Source: Candidatus Microgenomatus sp.
Lineage (GTDB): Bacteria; Patescibacteriota; Minisyncoccia; UBA6257; GWB1-50-10
Assembly: GCA_020724805.1 (NCBI GenBank)
Contig: DYGI01000001.1
Location: 8,934 to 72,933, forward strand
Direction: 5' to 3'
DNA length: 64,000 nt
In this document: positions 723 through 45,326 of the stretch, in pieces
Numbering within the stretch: position 1 is the first letter of the stretch
How the letters are laid out: the number at the start of each line of letters is the position of its first letter
Notes under the pieces: model-generated
Database searches by the model: none
Told to the model about the DNA's origin: nothing
The model's input: only the letters and a program-made list of their open reading frames with translations
Program-made: the position numbers and the translations under genes

Positions 723-773
723 GAGCGAGGGTACACGTCGACGAAGTCGACATAGGCCCGGATTTAAAAATCC

Positions 774-922
774 TGTCGGGGCATTGGGAAGCGAACGTCG
801 CTTCGCTCCCTGAAACCCTTCGGTTTCAGTACTTCCGGCGCGGGAAACCTCTCCTTTGCGGTTTCCCGACCCCTTCCCTGTCCGATTCCCAGCACGACGG
901 GAAGAAACTCGTGCCGAATTTG
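774..922 (-). mobile_element. tRNA-flanking structured insert, family A (Pro copy)
   Basis: 774-790 is a 17-nt direct repeat of the tRNA-Pro 3' end (tgtcggggcattgggaa). A ~130-bp insert follows with hairpins 810-829 (ctgaaacc-CTTC-ggtttcag) and 841-868 (cgggaaacc...ggtttcccg). Homologous to inserts at 38346-38543 and 39501-39654. Confidence 0.5.
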
Positions 923-993
923 TCGGGGCATTGGGAATCGAACCCAAGCTACGGAGTCCCGAACCCCGCGTACTACCACTATACTATGCCCCG
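923..993 (-). tRNA. tRNA-Pro (anticodon CGG), no encoded CCA
   Basis: Acceptor CGGGGCA/TGCCCCG, anticodon loop UUCGGGA, T-loop TTCGATT; hand-folded. Confidence 0.7.
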
Positions 994-1934
994 TTCCGCT
1001 CTCCATTAAACCTTGGAGGCTCAAAAAAATCCACTATACCTTGGTAGGTGAGGTCTGCAAGTGCGGGAAAAAGCTGTGCGCGTGCATTCTTGTCCACAAA
1101 ATAGGGCTCGTATATGTACCCGTACTCAATGAGGAGCGAGGCGGGATAGAGCGAGCCGTATGCGCCCACCGCGATAAGCTCTTGGTCCTCCACCACCCCT
1201 TCTTTTTCCTGAGGATAGTTGCTCACGGTAAGCGCGGTATTGAGCCGCGCTTTCACCGTATTCGCAAGCGCGCGACTCGCACGCGCATTGGGGAATTGGG
1301 ATTCGGGAACATAGATGCTAAAGCCGGTGTACCGCCCCGGCCGGGACGCTCGCGCCCTTGGATAATCGTTGAAGTGGATATGAAGAAGCGCGTCTACTCC
1401 ATTCTCATTCGCCCACAAGTTGATGCCGTAGAGTCGCCGTACGATTTCACTCGCCGCAAACCCGTGGTAGTTTTCCGTGACCGGTACTACGTCACCACGC
1501 GCAACCGCGCTCGCAAAAACCGCACGCACATAATCACGAAACTCCCAAATGAGCGATGAAAAAGTCTCAAAATGGTCCGCAAATTCATCCTTATACTCCC
1601 CGCTCTCGCGCGTAATGGTAACCGCAAAGCGCGGGTCTCCGGCAAAGCGGTCGCGCACCATTTTCCCCAATTCCAGCGTAAGGTCCGCTTCTCGCGTCCC
1701 CTTATACTCAGTGCCCCAAAATTCATCATCGTGGCCTGGCACCACAAGTATCCGGATTGGCACGCGAGATTCGTATTTCGCCCGAAGCGTTTCGGGCGTT
1801 ATTCTCTCGGGCGCGACAAGCGCCGCCAGCGAATCCCTCGCGTCGGGTAAGGGAAGCGGATTCCACACAAACGCGAGAAAAACAAAAGCCGCTCCACCAA
1901 GTACGCCAAGAACCGTGCGCCACATGAAGGTCAT
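984..1934 (-). CDS. N-acetylmuramoyl-L-alanine amidase (Amidase_3 family)
   Basis: 316 aa, N-terminal TM/signal, motifs ILVVPGHDD and HIHFND typical of cell-wall amidase_3; 3' end abuts/overlaps tRNA-Pro by ~10 nt. Confidence 0.7.
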   Translation of the reverse strand: MTFMWRTVLGVLGGAAFVFLAFVWNPLPLPDARDSLAALVAPERITPETLRAKYESRVPIRILVVPGHDDEFWGTEYKGTREADLTLELGKMVRDRFAGDPRFAVTITRESGEYKDEFADHFETFSSLIWEFRDYVRAVFASAVARGDVVPVTENYHGFAASEIVRRLYGINLWANENGVDALLHIHFNDYPRARASRPGRYTGFSIYVPESQFPNARASRALANTVKARLNTALTVSNYPQEKEGVVEDQELIAVGAYGSLYPASLLIEYGYIYEPYFVDKNARAQLFPALADLTYQGIVDFFEPPRFNGERNGA

Positions 1935-3385
1935 TTCACGAAATACCGTTTTTTCATCTCTTCCTCCAATCCGCTTTCGAACTCCTCCTTTTTTTCTCGC
2001 GCCGCGCGCGCAAGCGATTCCAATTCCTCTTCTTTAAGACCCGCAAGTTCTTTCACGCGCGGCTCAAGATATTCCTTAGTATTTCGTTTAGGGTCATCAA
2101 GCACCTCTTCCAACAACACGCCGAGTATCTTTCCTATCTTCGGCCCGGGTTCCATCCCTAATATTTTCATCACCTCATCCCCTTTCACCGCGAGCATTTT
2201 CGGGTGTATCGGGTCTTTCTTCACCTTCTCCATCATAAAAAGGAGGTGGCGAAGCTTGTAGGGGAACGCTTTGGGCACTCCCGAACCTATGCGGTCTCCC
2301 TCGCGCACCTTCAAAAGGTCATCGATGTATTCCGGCCCCACGCGCGCGATAAAGCGCCGCACACCTGCTTCCGAAACCTCACCCACGTTGTAGTAAAAAA
2401 GGTGATGGCGCACGAGATGCACCACGCGCTCGGCCACATCCTTGCCAAACCTCAGCCTGTCCATAATGATGGCGGCCATCTTCGCACCCACCACTTCGTG
2501 GTTGTAAAAAGTGGAGTCCGGTCCGTCCCCGCGCTTTGTTTTGGGCTTGCCCACATCATGGAGGAGCGAGGCAAGACGCACCTCAAAGGAATATCCTTTC
2601 TCCGCCGCATAGTGGAGTGCCCGCACATTGTGGTCAAACACGGTGTAAATATGATGTTTGTTCTGGCCACACCCTATGCCTTCGCGCAGTTCGGGTACTA
2701 CGAATTTCAAAAGGCCTAAATCCTCCATTGCGACCACGCCTTCCGCCGCACGCGGACTCATTATCAATTTCACGAATTCGTCCCGAATGCGCTCCTTCGC
2801 TATTGCCTCAAGAAGACTTGCGTGATGTATGACTGCTTTTTTGGTATTTTCCTCAATTTCAAATCCGAGTTCCGTGGCGAGACGTACCGCGCGCATCAAA
2901 CGAAGCGCATCCTCTTCAAAGCGCGCTTTGGGATTGCCCACGGTGCGAATCGTTTTTTTCTTAAGATCCGCGACGCCTTCATGCGGGTCAACAATATCTC
3001 TGGAAATGTTCGCGGCGATGGCGTTCACGGTAAAATCGCGACGCGAGAGATCTTCCTCGATGGTCTTCGCAAACTTTACTTCGTCGGGATGCCGAAAATC
3101 GGTGTAGCGACCTTCGATACGGAACGTGGTAACCTCCACGATTTTCAGCGTTGGGTCATCCGATTCCGTCTTCACGCCGACCGTGCCGAACGTATTTTCA
3201 TACACGCTTTCGGGAAAAAGCTCCTGCACCTTGTCAGGCGTGGCGTCGGTTGCCACATCCCAGTCTTTGGGCGCGCGCTTCAAGAGAAGATCTCGGAGGC
3301 ACCCGCCCACCAGAAAGGCCTGGTGCCCATTTTTTTTAAGCGTCTCCGCGATATTCCTCACTTCTTGCGGAATAGCAAATTTCAT
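1931..3385 (-). CDS. cca: CCA-adding tRNA nucleotidyltransferase with HD domain
   Basis: Track ORF 1931..3556 overlaps tRNA-Arg. Start moved to the internal ATG (MKFAIPQ...); poly(A) polymerase head-domain motifs (GGCLRDLLL, DWDVAT) and C-terminal HD (HD...H) region. Confidence 0.8.
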   Translation of the reverse strand: MKFAIPQEVRNIAETLKKNGHQAFLVGGCLRDLLLKRAPKDWDVATDATPDKVQELFPESVYENTFGTVGVKTESDDPTLKIVEVTTFRIEGRYTDFRHPDEVKFAKTIEEDLSRRDFTVNAIAANISRDIVDPHEGVADLKKKTIRTVGNPKARFEEDALRLMRAVRLATELGFEIEENTKKAVIHHASLLEAIAKERIRDEFVKLIMSPRAAEGVVAMEDLGLLKFVVPELREGIGCGQNKHHIYTVFDHNVRALHYAAEKGYSFEVRLASLLHDVGKPKTKRGDGPDSTFYNHEVVGAKMAAIIMDRLRFGKDVAERVVHLVRHHLFYYNVGEVSEAGVRRFIARVGPEYIDDLLKVREGDRIGSGVPKAFPYKLRHLLFMMEKVKKDPIHPKMLAVKGDEVMKILGMEPGPKIGKILGVLLEEVLDDPKRNTKEYLEPRVKELAGLKEEELESLARAAREKKEEFESGLEEEMKKRYFVK

Positions 3386-3390
3386 ATATG

Positions 3391-3465
3391 TGGTGCCCTC
3401 GGAGGGATTCGAACCCCCAATAACTGCTTCGAAGGCAGTCGTGATATCCATTTCACTACGAGGGC
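3391..3465 (-). tRNA. tRNA-Arg (anticodon UCG), CCA encoded
   Basis: Acceptor GCCCTCG/CGAGGGC, anticodon loop CUUCGAA, T-loop TTCGAAT, 3' CCA present. Confidence 0.75.
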
Positions 3466-3539
3466 CTAAATCGATTGTATCCTCAAAAATCCCGGTTCGC
3501 AAAAGAAAAAGCCGCACCCCCTCGATGCGGCCGAAATCT

Positions 3540-3713
3540 TCAATATGTATCTCCACGATAGCGAAGGCCTCCTTCCTTCCGAATTTTTTCCATAAGGCGC
3601 TTGGTGATGCCAGATTTCACAACGCGACGGAAATTCTCGAATGCTTTTTGTTGGTCAAATCCGTCACCAGTTGGCTTACGCGATTTTTGCGCTTTGCGCT
3701 TTTTCTTCGCCAT
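3540..3713 (-). CDS. small basic protein (57 aa), possibly ribosome-associated
   Basis: ATG..TGA ORF MAKKKRKAQKSRKPTGDGF... shorter than the 60-aa track cutoff; compact spacing between tRNA-Arg and tRNA-Lys. Confidence 0.4.
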   Translation of the reverse strand: MAKKKRKAQKSRKPTGDGFDQQKAFENFRRVVKSGITKRLMEKIRKEGGLRYRGDTY

Positions 3714-3844: not shown

Positions 3845-4008
3845 CAACAAAGTTGGACGACCGTAGCTCTGCGCCTGCGCGCCGAGCGACCTTGGGGTCG
3901 AACGTCGGAGCATATGCGGCGCAGCAGCGCTGCACGCGAGACGGTGCCCAGTCCGAAGGCGCGTGACGGCGCGCCGAGAGACGCGGGAGACCCCCAGGGG
4001 GCGGACAA
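3845..4008 (+). repeat. tRNA-flanking insert, family B (Lys copy), with direct repeat of tRNA 3' end
   Basis: A ~145-bp GC-rich insert follows tRNA-Lys. A 20-nt exact copy of the tRNA 3' end (gacccccagggggcggacaa) sits at 3989-4008. The tRNA-Leu insert at 45201-45326 has the same architecture and a similar start. Confidence 0.45.
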
Positions 4009-4202: not shown

Positions 4203-6332
4203 ATGGCTTCCATCGCATTTGAAACGGCACTGGAAGACATTAGTGGTATTGCGCCGCGCTATCTTACGGCATTCAAACGTCTGAATATAAAAACTGTCCG
4301 CGATCTCCTCTATCATTTCCCCTCCCGATACGAGGACTATTCGCACGTGTATCGCATCGCAGAACTCGAGCCGGGACAAGATGCAACCATCCAAGGTGAG
4401 ATATATGAAGTAACGGGCCGAAAAACGTGGCGACGCACGTACTATGTGACCGAAGCAGTTATCACGGACGGTGAAGATTCCATTCGCGCGGTGTGGTGGA
4501 ATCAGCCCTATCTCAGAAATACCCTTCGCCACGGCGCACGCGTCAACATTTCGGGAAAAGTGTCCGTGAACGAGCGGGGCGAGTTATTTTTCTCGAACCC
4601 CGCGTTCGAATTCATCCATGCGCACGAAGAAGCGCACGATGCAACGCATACCGCCCGTATTGTCCCTATCTATCGCGAAACTCACGGCCTCACTTCAAAA
4701 GGCATTCGTTATATCCTTCGACCAATCCTTGAAAATGTTGATGTTGAAGAGTTCCTTCCCGAAGCGGTTTTGGAACGAGAGGGATTCCCGACGCTTCGAC
4801 CCGCGCTTCACGCGGTGCATTTCCCCGATGAACTCGCTGAAACGGAAGCGGCGAAGCGTCGGTTTGCATTTGAGGACCTTTTTCTCCTTGAGCTCACCAA
4901 TGCGCGTGAACGGGCGCGCCTTTCAAAAGAAAGTGCGCTTTCTGTTCCTTTTCCGGCTGCGCGTCGGAAAAAAATCATTTCATCACTCCCTTTTGCACTC
5001 ACCGATTCACAGGCGCATGCGCTCGATGAAATACTCGAAGACATCGCAAAGCCGCATCCGATGAACCGCCTTCTCCAAGGAGATGTGGGGTCCGGTAAAA
5101 CCATTGTAGCGGGTATCGCTGCTATGGCGGCGGGGGAAGCAAAATATCAAACCGCCATTATGGCGCCCACCGAAATACTCGCCTATCAGCATTACGAAAC
5201 TTTCAAGAAATTTTTTTCTGACTTCGCGGGAGGTATCGCGCTCCTCACGGGGAGCGCCGCGCGCATCTTTCTTGGCGAAGGACTCGAGCGCGAGACGAAA
5301 AAAGCTGAACTTCATAGCGCAATCCGTGCCGGCAGAATCTCTATCGTTATAGGCACCCATGCGCTCATCGAGAAAAAAGTAACGCTCCCTCACCTCGCCC
5401 TTGTGGTCATCGACGAACAACATCGATTCGGCGTGGAACAGAGAGCCGCGCTCATGCGCGAAGACGCAGTTCCACATTTTTTGAGCATGTCAGCAACGCC
5501 GATTCCTCGCACGCTCGCGCTCACCATTTTCGGCAACTTGAATGTCTCGCAAATCACCGAACTCCCCAAGGACCGCAAGGAAATAATTACGAAAGTAGTC
5601 GCGCCCGAAAACCGCTTAAAGGCCTATGCGTTCATCAAGGAATTTGTGGAAAAAGGGAGGCAGGCCTTCGTCATATGCCCGCGCATCATCCCTTCCAATA
5701 TCGAACCGGGGGGGATGCTCGATGCCGCCACGCTTGCGCGACTGGATATGAAGAACGTAACAGAGGAATATGAAAAACTTTCAAAAAAAATATTCCCCGA
5801 TCTTTCGGTCGCGATGCTCCATAGAAAGTTGAAGCCGAAGGAAAAAGCGAGCGTGATGAAGGCTTTCTCGGACGGAAAAATCGACATTTTGGTATCCACA
5901 TCCGTCATTGAGGTAGGCGTCGACGTGCCGAATGCGACCATAATGATGGTGGAAAGCGCCGAACGGTTCGGCCTTGCACAGCTCTATCAGTTCCGCGGAC
6001 GCGTCGGCCGCGGTGCCCATCAATCTTTTTGCCTTCTTTTCACGGAATCCACCTCGGAAGCGACGCAAAAACGCCTGGAAGCAGTAGCGCGCGCGAAAAA
6101 CGGTTTTGAGCTTGCCGAAGAGGATCTGAAACTCCGCGGACCAGGTGAATTTTTGGGCACCATCCAAACCGGCATGCCCGATATCGCGATGAAGGCGCTC
6201 CAACACCCCACACTTATTCCTAAAGCGCGTTCCGCCGCAGGGGAACTTTTAAAGAAGGGGGGCGATTACTGCCTCTCTCCACTCCTCCAAAATAAGCTTG
6301 TGGCGTTCAAAAAACAGATTCATTGGGAATAG
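4203..6332 (+). CDS. recG: ATP-dependent DNA helicase RecG
   Basis: 709 aa; wedge domain, Walker A GDVGSGKT, DEQH box, helicase C motifs; TATAAT-like box ~18 bp upstream. Confidence 0.9.
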   Translation: MASIAFETALEDISGIAPRYLTAFKRLNIKTVRDLLYHFPSRYEDYSHVYRIAELEPGQDATIQGEIYEVTGRKTWRRTYYVTEAVITDGEDSIRAVWWNQPYLRNTLRHGARVNISGKVSVNERGELFFSNPAFEFIHAHEEAHDATHTARIVPIYRETHGLTSKGIRYILRPILENVDVEEFLPEAVLEREGFPTLRPALHAVHFPDELAETEAAKRRFAFEDLFLLELTNARERARLSKESALSVPFPAARRKKIISSLPFALTDSQAHALDEILEDIAKPHPMNRLLQGDVGSGKTIVAGIAAMAAGEAKYQTAIMAPTEILAYQHYETFKKFFSDFAGGIALLTGSAARIFLGEGLERETKKAELHSAIRAGRISIVIGTHALIEKKVTLPHLALVVIDEQHRFGVEQRAALMREDAVPHFLSMSATPIPRTLALTIFGNLNVSQITELPKDRKEIITKVVAPENRLKAYAFIKEFVEKGRQAFVICPRIIPSNIEPGGMLDAATLARLDMKNVTEEYEKLSKKIFPDLSVAMLHRKLKPKEKASVMKAFSDGKIDILVSTSVIEVGVDVPNATIMMVESAERFGLAQLYQFRGRVGRGAHQSFCLLFTESTSEATQKRLEAVARAKNGFELAEEDLKLRGPGEFLGTIQTGMPDIAMKALQHPTLIPKARSAAGELLKKGGDYCLSPLLQNKLVAFKKQIHWE

Positions 6333-39688: not shown

Positions 39689-39775
39689 CGGAGGCGGAAG
39701 GATTCGAACCTTCGAGGGGATTGCTCCCCTAACATCTTAGCAGGATGCTGCCTTAAGCCACTCGGCCACGCCTCC
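39689..39775 (-). tRNA. tRNA-Ser (anticodon GCU), long variable arm
   Basis: Acceptor GGAGGCG/CGCCTCC, anticodon loop CUGCUAA, 17-nt variable arm, T-loop TTCGAAT. Confidence 0.8.
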
Positions 39776-45200: not shown

Positions 45201-45326
45201 CAAAGTGTCGGTACAATAAAGAAGTTGAAGCCAACTCGCACGCTCGCGAGCGAGGAAAAGCGCGAGTGGCCGGCGACGGAGGAGGCGCGTATGCGCTGGG
45301 GGAGGAGGACTCCCACCCCGGACACA
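45201..45326 (+). repeat. tRNA-flanking insert, family B (Leu copy), with direct repeat of tRNA 3' end
   Basis: A ~105-bp GC-rich insert, then a 19-nt exact copy of the tRNA-Leu 3' end (gactcccaccccggacaca) at 45308-45326. Confidence 0.45.

Follow-up and report, generated by a model that had tools for sequence, protein, structure and literature searches.

The 64,000-nt stretch of contig DYGI01000001.1 (Candidatus Microgenomatus sp., Patescibacteriota) that was analysed here, referred to below as the window, carries behind its gene for tRNA-Pro(CGG) a small non-coding insert that we read as one copy of a mobile element, family A. In this reading, which we consider probable, a copy enters by a single Campbell-type exchange at a highly conserved motif, supplies the gene with a new end, leaves the original end displaced on its far side, and contains, in inverted form, a copy of its target motif (M') that may serve as a guide. 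Family A would then consist of site-specific integrative elements that replace gene ends and, if target choice were indeed directed by a guide, might represent a new class of such elements, a further step that we take only tentatively. All coordinates are positions in the window unless a locus number is given, and the element strand at the Pro locus is the minus strand.

An insertion behind tRNA-Pro

The 3' end of the tRNA-Pro gene is present twice. An exact 17-nt repeat of the tRNA-Pro terminus (TTCCCAATGCCCCGACA; 2 flanking nt also match) occupies 921-937 and 774-790, and can be extended to 23 nt with one mismatch (GTTCGaTT.. versus GTTCGcTT..). An exact repeat of 17 nt within 150 nt would be expected by chance with a frequency of about 1e-8. 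The period of the repeat, and hence the size of the insert, is 147 bp. An earlier sequence-only reading had noticed this repeat, had described the insert as lacking any open reading frame (ORF), and had pointed to homologous inserts behind tRNA-Arg(GCG) and tRNA-Ser(GCU), each bounded by a repeat of its own tRNA's 3' end; all three observations were borne out, the only ORFs that overlap the Pro insert being spurious ones that run across the tRNA. The parts of the three inserts are listed in Table 1.

Relatives provide the insert-free state for which that reading had suggested a search. The amidase gene adjoining tRNA-Pro (984-1934) has homologues of 70-73% identity in contigs of related organisms, which keep the order RecG, CCA-adding enzyme, amidase, tRNA-Pro(CGG), tRNA-Ala(CGC), with no insert. 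In a Brennerbacteria metagenome-assembled genome (MAG; locus L048), tRNA-Pro directly abuts tRNA-Ala, and in L049 the two are 94 nt apart; neither locus matches R1, our covariance model of the family A core. The 94-nt spacer of L049 (CAGGACTGAATGGTCC..CGGGCCTGTATCG) can be aligned with the part of the window just behind the second repeat (CAGGATTTTTAAATCCGGGCCTATGTCG). It follows that the downstream repeat is continuous with the ancestral flank, and that the new DNA comprises the tRNA's present 3' end, a spacer, the inverted copy and the core. The right repeat, which reads GTTCGCTTCCCAATGCCCCGACA on the minus strand (796-774), is the displaced original tRNA 3' end, and the 3' part of tRNA-Pro, from the T-loop/T-stem boundary onward, would now be borne by the element. 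An empty site at this locus would read tRNA-Pro and then directly CAGGATTTTTAAATCC. A protein gene gives a similar picture: orthologues of TypA that are 86-90% identical to that of L114 lack the element, and a hairpin (GAGCCACGGGGTGCCC..GGGCAC) with a T-run, which lies before the ATG in the orthologues, lies before a pseudo-start in L114. These results show the 147 bp between the repeat copies to be an insertion of a non-autonomous, non-coding mobile element.

Table 1. Coordinates of family A and family B copies and of their parts (window positions, except where a locus is named)
Feature	Coordinates	Strand	Remarks
Intact tRNA-Pro(CGG), host gene	922..993	-	ARAGORN; Rfam tRNA match 923-993, 63 bits
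Left repeat copy (M+R), GTTCGATTCCCAATGCCCCGACA	921..943	-	T-loop, T-stem 3' strand, acceptor 3' strand, discriminator, 2 nt
Spacer, 30 nt	891..920	-	Within inserted DNA; unique to Pro copy; weak hairpin GCACGA..TCGTGC
M' (P1 5' strand), GGGAATCGGAC	880..890	-	Inverted tRNA T-loop + T-stem 3' strand, 10/11 complementary
Conserved core	806..883	-	Invariant AAGGGGTCGGG; P2; CCCGYGYCGGA; P3; R1 match 66.7 bits, E ~1e-15
P2	868-860 paired with 849-841	-	
P3	829-822 paired with 817-810	-	
GCGAAGC mini-hairpin	800..806	-	P4 position
Right repeat copy	774..796	-	Imperfect motif GTTCGCTTCCC (786-796, P1 3' strand, A58->C) + AATGCCCCGACA (774-785)
Ancestral downstream flank, hairpin GGATTTTTAAATCC	760..773	-	Outside element; aligns with L049 directly after insert-free tRNA-Pro
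Second family A copy, after tRNA-Arg(GCG)	38347..38564	-	R1 57.8 bits; period 196 bp
Arg copy, left repeat	38543-38564	-	
Arg copy, spacer	38498-38542	-	Terminator-like
Arg copy, M'	38486-38497	-	
Arg copy, core	38387-38488	-	
Arg copy, right repeat	38347-38368	-	
Third family A copy, after tRNA-Ser(GCU)	39501..39709	-	R1 70.1 bits; period 185 bp
Ser copy, left repeat	39686-39709	-	
Ser copy, spacer	39632-39685	-	
Ser copy, M'	39618-39631	-	
Ser copy, core	39544-39621	-	
Ser copy, right repeat	39501-39525	-	
Family B, tRNA-Lys(CTT)	3846-4006	+	
Family B, tRNA-Glu(TTC)	39220-39411	-	
Family B, tRNA-Gly(CCC)	3404-3565 (L027)		

A dispersed family with a selected fold

Within the window, R1 run with its filters off finds exactly three copies. 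The cores of the Pro and Ser copies are 95% identical, although their M' segments and repeats are specific to the respective tRNAs; each of the three inserts contains an inverted copy of the T-arm of its own tRNA, about 30-55 nt behind that tRNA, and the M' of the Arg and Ser copies is complementary to its tRNA at 11/12 and 14/14 positions, respectively. Family A is defined here as the core (AAGGGGTCGGG, P2, CCCGYGYCGGA, P3) with an inverted target copy before it and a target copy after it, a definition that fits all three.

Many more copies came to light in related MAGs. A search pattern built from the bases common to the three window copies (AAGGGGTCGGG, 14-26 nt, CCCGYGYCGGA) matched 46 stretches in GTDB contigs (one genome per species), a further 71 in contigs from metagenomes and none in 2.9 million viral contigs. 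R1 confirmed 35 copies in 33 Patescibacteria loci and 65 in metagenome loci, which with the three in the window makes 103, 83 of them distinct; they are 110-250 bp in size. Their hosts are labelled Kaiser-, Wolfe-, Nomura-, Colwell-, Lipton- and Brennerbacteria, Paceibacterota and Minisyncoccia, together with some MAGs labelled Saccharibacteria. Pattern hits in Actinomycetota, Planctomycetota and other phyla score at most 34 bits with R1 and lack the second hairpin, P3 (true copies score 43-87 bits); to date, family A is known from Patescibacteria alone. Full-text literature searches found no description of such elements.

The two hairpins with compensatory changes that the sequence-only reading had listed are present, and the covariation that it had proposed to examine is supported by the larger set. 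Across 85 copies (80 distinct), 97.6% of the cells in the model structure are paired, as against 90.8% in column shuffles, none of 500 shuffles doing as well; among the 80 distinct copies, 9 of the 16 pairs have changed on both sides, and sliding the 3' partners lowers pairing to 28-72%. Two positions are G.U in 70/80 and 76/80 copies, which means that only the element-sense strand can fold in this way. For the Pro copy, the predicted fold with its closing stem, P1, has -49.5 kcal/mol (z = -3.6 for 770-880). Automatic calling of P1 by minimum free energy over-extended the stems, and ungapped pairing and exact-match counts were therefore used instead for the comparisons of M' below. Just behind the core, at the P4 position, 38 of 81 distinct copies have the mini-hairpin GCGAAGC or its variants GCGCAGC and GCGTAGC, at 15 times the background and with 39 occurrences in sense against 2 in antisense; GNA-triloop versions are enriched and GNRA versions are rare. 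No family in Rfam 15 matches the insert: at the gathering threshold only tRNAs are found in the window, and at E<=10 over 740-1000 there is, besides the tRNA, only weak noise (omega RNA, HEARO, group II and other intron families being among the models searched).

Layout and targets

On the folding strand, every informative copy has the same order: an intact gene end (a motif, M, followed by the rest of the gene end, R), a spacer, M', the core, an imperfect M, a second R and the ancestral flank. P1, the stem around the core, is formed by M' and the distal M. The spacer varies from 0 to 55 nt, and the repeat from 12 to about 105 nt, always reaching just past the gene terminus; the 3' junction is precise and the 5' junction variable. 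M is in every case a highly conserved sequence close to the terminus of its gene, such as the tRNA T-loop/T-stem, the GTPase G1, HMA or Rossmann motif, or the N-terminal motif of pilins.

About 40% of copies lie behind tRNAs (at least 15 identities) and in the same orientation. One cluster comprises the translational GTPases EF-G, LepA and TypA with 21 copies, 20 of them in front of the gene and antisense to it, and one, at lepA in L036, behind the 3' end in the same orientation. At fusA in L002, for example, the order in gene orientation is a pseudo-start (ATG..AATAATCGCAC), the antisense element, CAATGTGCGCAAT (inverted G1-motif DNA), a short spacer and the real fusA. The lepA gene of L036 has a family A copy at each end (3551-3624, minus strand, and 5472-5545, plus strand), the 5' one at the G1 motif and the 3' one at the motif encoding PQDVFLK, with a 21-nt inverted copy. 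Copies at the GMHC motif of HMA domains occur in L026, where a perfect 43-nt repeat reaches 4 nt beyond the ATG, and in L044. Further targets are the Rossmann GxGxxG N-terminus, the phosphate-1 motif of FtsA/actin, the pilin GFTLIE motif, Mur ligase and LeuRS, and, at gene 3' ends and in sense orientation, not only lepA (L036) but also rplL (L005), nth and alaS (L103), the last having its copy at the CGG(P/T)H motif and a repeat about 105 nt long.

In L114 (2640-2860) and L002 (7480-7680), the pseudo-start opens a short upstream ORF (e.g. MEIRNIAIIAPVVTTS..) into the antisense element, and the N-termini of proteins at such copies may be mis-assigned by gene callers. In L014, L019 and L032, another conserved module, about 130 nt long (GATAAAATYGCYCAGCGRCRATTTTTCCCTG..TTTCGCTTCGCAAAA), lies between the tRNA and the family A copy, in the spacer position; a perfect closing stem of 20-25 bp and variable sequence surrounds it. 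A different structured insert of about 120 nt, with the closing stem AAAGTGTT/AACACTTT, separates the start codon of typA from the conserved hairpin upstream of it in L129 (1375-1500), in a genome that has no family A copy at its typA site. In L009, L034, L058 and L119, the last codons of a convergent gene for the CCA-adding enzyme (..HHVS*) run into the 3' end of the element, and a perfect hairpin stands directly before the core.

Gene ends of foreign origin

The protein-gene copies allow the two versions of a gene end to be compared codon by codon, and this was done for the pseudo and real 5' ends of nine distinct GTPase copies. The ends differ in 86 of 144 codons. Of these differences 76 are synonymous, and among the 10 that are not, several are one recurrent change, His to Pro, at the junction; by codon position, the changes number 12, 7 and 80 for positions 1, 2 and 3. 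The ends of rplL show the same synonymous pattern (GGC AAA GTA ACA TTG AAG TAA versus GGA AAG GTA ACC TTG AAA TAA), as do those of alaS. Decay after insertion would have given first- and second-position changes, and it follows that both copies evolved within working genes, in different lineages. In seven of the nine pairs, the distal (pseudo) copy is the closer of the two in codon usage to the remainder of the host gene. These comparisons show the distal copy to be the displaced original, the end now on the gene having arrived with the element in Campbell style.

Almost purely synonymous divergence leads us to reject simple target-site duplication at the protein-gene copies. Spread by homologous recombination alone also seems unlikely, since the distal copy, with about half of its codons different, is too diverged to have been a homology arm.

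The inverted target copy as a possible guide

Sequences on both sides of the core bear on the role of M'. In 62 of 72 copies, the longer of its two perfect complements is the one on the intact-gene side (mean 11.0 nt, as against 6.8 nt distally); the match is 13/13 in L002, for example, and extends over 21 nt and 23 nt in L036 and L081, respectively. The distal motif departs from the true one at fixed positions next to the junction. In most tRNA-type copies, T-loop GTTCGAT has become GTGAGAT (in family B, which has a non-homologous core and is discussed below, the distal motif is GGGAGA), and these altered T-loops give tandem G.A pairs in P1. The subtype found in the window has A58->C, with a U.C mismatch in P1, and in the GTPase type a His codon, CAC, has become CCC, with an A.G mismatch. 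The 3' end of the element is thus an imperfect mimic of the target, with the mismatch located where element-constant sequence meets host sequence.

We suggest that the moving unit may be R, spacer, M' and core, and that a single site-specific exchange of the Campbell type would take place at M. One strand would fold, and its M' could pair either with the element's own junction, forming P1 with a purine-purine or U.C mismatch beside the junction, or perfectly with a target motif. M' would then be a guide or splint of 8-24 nt, choosing the target and fixing the register in which strands are transferred, while the conserved core would dock a recombinase or transposase encoded elsewhere in the genome. 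In a hypothetical circle formed by the Pro copy, the 3' end of the core (..GCGACGTTCG) would be joined to the left-copy sequence (..CTTCCCAATGCCCCGACAAATTCGG). The nearest mechanistic parallels are the pairing of guide and cleavage site in IS200/IS605 and the folded single strands of integron attC and CTX phage. Such a mechanism would account for several features of the family. If identity over 10-20 nt is required for the exchange, spread between diverged hosts would be possible only at ultra-conserved motifs; a new gene end supplied by the element would make insertion harmless; the need to carry the rest of the gene would confine targets to the neighbourhood of gene termini; and a guide-like M' would let one core serve many targets.

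A bolder version of this proposal, which we regard as possible and no stronger than that, is programmable integration guided by nucleic acid: M' alone would set the site, the core of about 80 nt would recruit an enzyme encoded in trans and possibly belonging to the host, and transfer would be single-stranded or RNA-directed. Retargeting would then require a change only in M' and in the carried gene end, and the elements could conceivably constitute a new class of guided recombination, indigenous to Patescibacteria with their reduced genomes.

That single-stranded DNA (ssDNA) may be the folding molecule is hinted at by the strand-specific enrichment of GCGAAGC, with its GNA triloop. In the same direction point the lack of room for a promoter before M', the terminator-like hairpins that often precede it, and the antisense position of the folding strand at GTPase genes.

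Several observations weigh against the explanation that we favour. No enzyme has been identified: clustering of ORFs around first 33 and then 93 loci yielded only housekeeping families and the target genes, with no recurrent recombinase, reverse transcriptase (RT) or transposase near the inserts, and inspection of ORFs in the 64-kb window and in the flanks of the loci revealed no Y1 HUH TnpA or RAYT. No empty site was found in the same population, among five contigs with an identical amidase, and no excised or circular form was seen. The conserved G.U pairs and the invariant bases at the junctions would be less usual in ssDNA than in RNA, and we know of no precedent for a single M' that serves both junctions. 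Near-identical cores of one genome can have unrelated spacers (Pro and Ser in the window; L017 with no spacer and L031 with a perfect terminator), which gene conversion of cores or de novo formation of junctions would fit better than transfer of the whole unit. In L046 (about 900-1280), a family A copy and then an unrelated element rich in GAGCRAAGCGA stand in tandem behind tRNA-Pro(GGG), and each is followed by the same 31-nt block (AGCGAAGCG-TCCCGGCGGCCCGAC-ATTAGA), which includes local flank and so resembles a true target-site duplication. Lastly, two subgroups, one located where the gene for the CCA-adding enzyme stops and the other beside an antisense tRNA-Glu, have a hairpin before the core but neither a terminus repeat nor a P1 that is clear.

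Recombination between copies is indicated by mosaic cores in L006 and L019, and homogenisation of cores may account for the unrelated spacers; the near-identical cores of Pro and Ser, and those of L017 and L031, suggest recent activity or exchange within genomes. Elsewhere in the family, the spacer position is occupied by a strong terminator-like hairpin, and the idea that terminators had been captured received no support from the Pro spacer, of which there is no second copy in the window (a comparison of low power).

The sequence-only reading had left a choice between a mini integrative element mobilised in trans and a structured RNA. The former is upheld, in the form of a mobile element with a selected single-strand fold, and the absence of a recombinase in or near the inserts fits mobilisation in trans. 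Our analysis supports an extension of that reading, in that the family is not specific to tRNAs, carries a replacement gene end and contains an inverted copy of its target.

Alternative explanations

Other explanations are taken here in falling order of probability. Ranked second to a Campbell-type mobile element, though in our judgement rather unlikely, is an RNA-guided or RNA-mediated element, the core of which would be transcribed as a scaffold resembling an omega RNA, a bridge RNA or a prime-editing guide RNA (pegRNA), with M' and M-R as guide or primer-binding segments for a recombinase, nuclease or RT encoded in trans, so that RNA would template or direct the insertion. The strand-specific fold, in which two G.U pairs hardly vary and the unpaired bases of the junction are invariant, would be natural in such an RNA, and M' is guide-like in matching its target. 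Moreover, the 3' motif is altered exactly beside the junction (TC->GA; CAC->CCC), much as protospacer- or transposon-adjacent motifs (PAM/TAM) are when self-targeting is avoided, and a precise 3' junction with a variable 5' junction would also be in keeping. Against this, there is no promoter upstream of M', terminator-like hairpins stand before M' at tRNAs, and the element is antisense at GTPases; M' is paired with the 3' segment, which would occlude a guide; and the enriched GNA triloops are of DNA type. The flanks contain no recurrent RT, TnpB or IscB gene, none of the Rfam families (omega RNA, HEARO and group II included) matches, and group II introns are reported to be absent from Patescibacteria as a phylum (PMC13011429). 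Group I introns are common in the tRNAs of these bacteria (PMC13011429), and a group I remnant was also considered; it was rejected, as the tRNA is intact with the insert behind it and no model matches, and the same holds for a group II intron.

It is very unlikely that the elements are genes for structured non-coding RNAs of benefit to the host (tRNA-trailer RNAs or cis regulators), multiplied by local duplication and flanked by repeats that are themselves functional. Conservation of sequence and structure over many lineages is indeed strong, and the frequent position right behind tRNAs would permit co-transcription. Yet copies are present or absent at orthologous sites, terminators lie between tRNA and element, and the distal gene-end copies are xenologous. 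Nor is the sense of the element consistent (the same as the gene behind tRNAs and gene 3' ends, antisense before GTPase genes), and several unrelated cores have the same geometry. This explanation is therefore already out of favour.

Hardly any probability attaches to the copies being scars, that is, remnants next to attR of deleted prophages or islands that once had their own integrase. Repeats of tRNA 3' ends that resemble attL/attR, and replacement of a gene end, are classical for integrases. However, the roughly 100 copies are all 110-250 bp long, no longer version and no integrase occurs between the repeats, 2.9 million viral contigs contain no match, the structure is under selection, and one core is found at dozens of different targets.

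An ordinary cut-and-paste or replicative miniature inverted-repeat transposable element (MITE), with M' and M as terminal inverted repeats (TIRs) and the flanking repeat as a target-site duplication from a staggered cut, is scarcely credible. It would explain the inverted M' and M at the element ends, the simple 19-bp flanking repeat without a spacer in L017, and the inclusion of local flank in the L046 repeat; it does not explain repeats of 12 to about 105 nt that always extend to just past the gene terminus, or 'TIRs' that change with the target. For the protein-gene copies it is refuted, as duplication followed by decay cannot give repeat copies that differ at about half of their codons, nearly always synonymously.

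That assembly or binning created spurious repeats has a negligible probability, and the caution of the sequence-only reading on this point can be set aside: short-read contigs do break inside the core, but a 570,864-bp contig and the assemblies of other samples have a locus identical to that of the window (three independent assemblies), which excludes an artefact of assembly, and the same architecture recurs at about 100 loci from many projects. Two Logan contigs (L126, L127), independent short-read assemblies of the same organism, end at the same position in the core (P3), as expected of a repeat.

Relation to known systems

Replacement of the end of a target gene by an element-borne version is familiar from islands and prophages that integrate in tRNA genes, from phage 21 and e14 at icd, and from derivatives that have lost the integrase (cis-mobilisable elements, CIMEs). 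Family A shares with these the Campbell geometry, the displaced original end as a direct repeat on the far side, synonymous differences between repeats in protein genes, and a crossover in the T-loop region of tRNAs. It differs in measuring 110-250 bp rather than kilobases, in having no integrase in cis in about 100 copies, in using one core at dozens of unrelated targets that include the 5' ends of protein genes, and in having an inverted target copy and a selected single-strand fold. Of the hallmarks of a tyrosine-integrase island, it thus has the direct repeat of the tRNA 3' part, and has neither an integrase inside nor the pairing of one integrase with one target.

In integrons, attC sites have a variable centre and conserved R and L boxes and lie beside intI, and in the CTX phage a hairpin of the (+) strand, attP(+), mimics dif for XerCD. 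Here, too, an imperfect hairpin stem rebuilds a duplex that resembles the target, with a mismatch or extrahelical feature beside the crossover, and integration leaves a target copy, the cargo, an inverted arm, the loop and a further target copy, in that order. In family A, by contrast, the stem is free in sequence and the 'loop' is conserved and structured, and the targets are gene termini; the sites are dispersed at gene ends, and their flanks contain no intI-like gene, so that they do not qualify as attC sites. The likeness of the T-loop GTTCGAT to the attC box GTTRRRY (RYYYAAC...GTTRRRY) is a resemblance only.

Elements of the IS200/IS605 group move by 'peel and paste', in which a guide pairs with the cleavage site (PMC5027513), and longer engineered guides raise the specificity of IS608 (PMC5934647); non-autonomous derivatives include palindrome-associated transposable elements (PATEs) and the repetitive extragenic palindromic sequences REP/REPIN, which are associated with RAYT (PMC5027513, PMC5934647, PMC6006769). 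Like them, family A has strand-specific hairpins (a likeness that the fold analysis bears out), a putative internal guide pairing, no classical target-site duplication and non-autonomous copies that would be mobilised in trans. The differences are a putative guide of 8-24 nt rather than 4-5 nt, which alone would serve both junctions, replacement of the gene end, no Y1/HUH gene found in the window ORFs or locus flanks, and a core that matches neither IS ends nor omega RNA families.

The bridge RNA of IS110 and the omega RNAs of TnpB and IscB are guide-carrying non-coding RNAs of mobile elements (PMC11208160, PMC8612924). Family A resembles them as a structured non-coding module with target-matching sequence that covaries with the target. 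In the known systems, the guide is part of an internal loop or of a free tail at the 3' or 5' end, and the gene for the protein adjoins the RNA; in family A, which is known here as DNA sequence, the target-derived segments pair with each other as the closing stem, and there is no adjacent protein gene or ORF, which sets it apart from IS110. Comparison with MITEs has the same outcome, for the inverted segments change with the target and the repeats, of 12 to about 105 nt, are xenologous.

If our interpretation is correct, family A would contain the smallest known site-specific integrative elements, free of genes, equipped with a built-in target copy and with a spare gene end by which harm is avoided. 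A recombination activity not so far identified would then exist in Patescibacteria, whose genomes are very small and have few recognised mobile elements, and horizontal transfer from one distant lineage to another would be recognisable by its xenologous gene ends. The elements would also explain why assemblies of the candidate phyla radiation (CPR) have pseudo-start codons, duplicated tRNA ends and broken contigs, the core repeats being a practical cause of fragmentation at tRNA loci. Should target choice be directed by the guide, the family would also be a natural example of programmable insertion.

Other inserts and tRNAs in the window

The window has 18 tRNA genes, of which six are followed by an element: besides the three with family A, the genes for Lys-CTT, Glu-TTC and Leu-TAA have a downstream repeat of the tRNA 3' end around non-homologous cores. 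By inspection, the ORFs of the window are ordinary Paceibacteria-like genes. CCA is encoded in only four of the 18 tRNAs (Ala twice, Arg-TCG and Gly), and a gene for the CCA-adding enzyme lies at 1931-3451.

Family B (Table 1) has the same geometry as family A, with a perfect inverted T-arm and then a repeat of the tRNA 3' end, around a different core (GYCGGAG.., ..CGAGRCGGTGCCYAG.., 3' end GGGAGA|TTCC). Here again there is an empty site, tRNA-Lys abutting recG without the element in L047. The possibility that the inserts of families B and C were divergent members of family A was rejected, as R1 with its filters off matches only the three copies already described. A third kind of insert, after tRNA-Leu(TAA) (45202-45325, plus strand), is closed by 18 nt that repeat the 3' end of the tRNA (GACTCCCACCCCGGACAC); its inverted T-arm is degenerate, and one of its motifs, GGCGACGGAGG, is reminiscent of family B. 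Finally, an insert of about 70 nt after tRNA-Lys(CTT) in L049 (about 1870-1950, minus strand), with the repeat CCGGGCGGACAA and containing ..TTTCCGAAC.., is possibly a minimal member of the same class.

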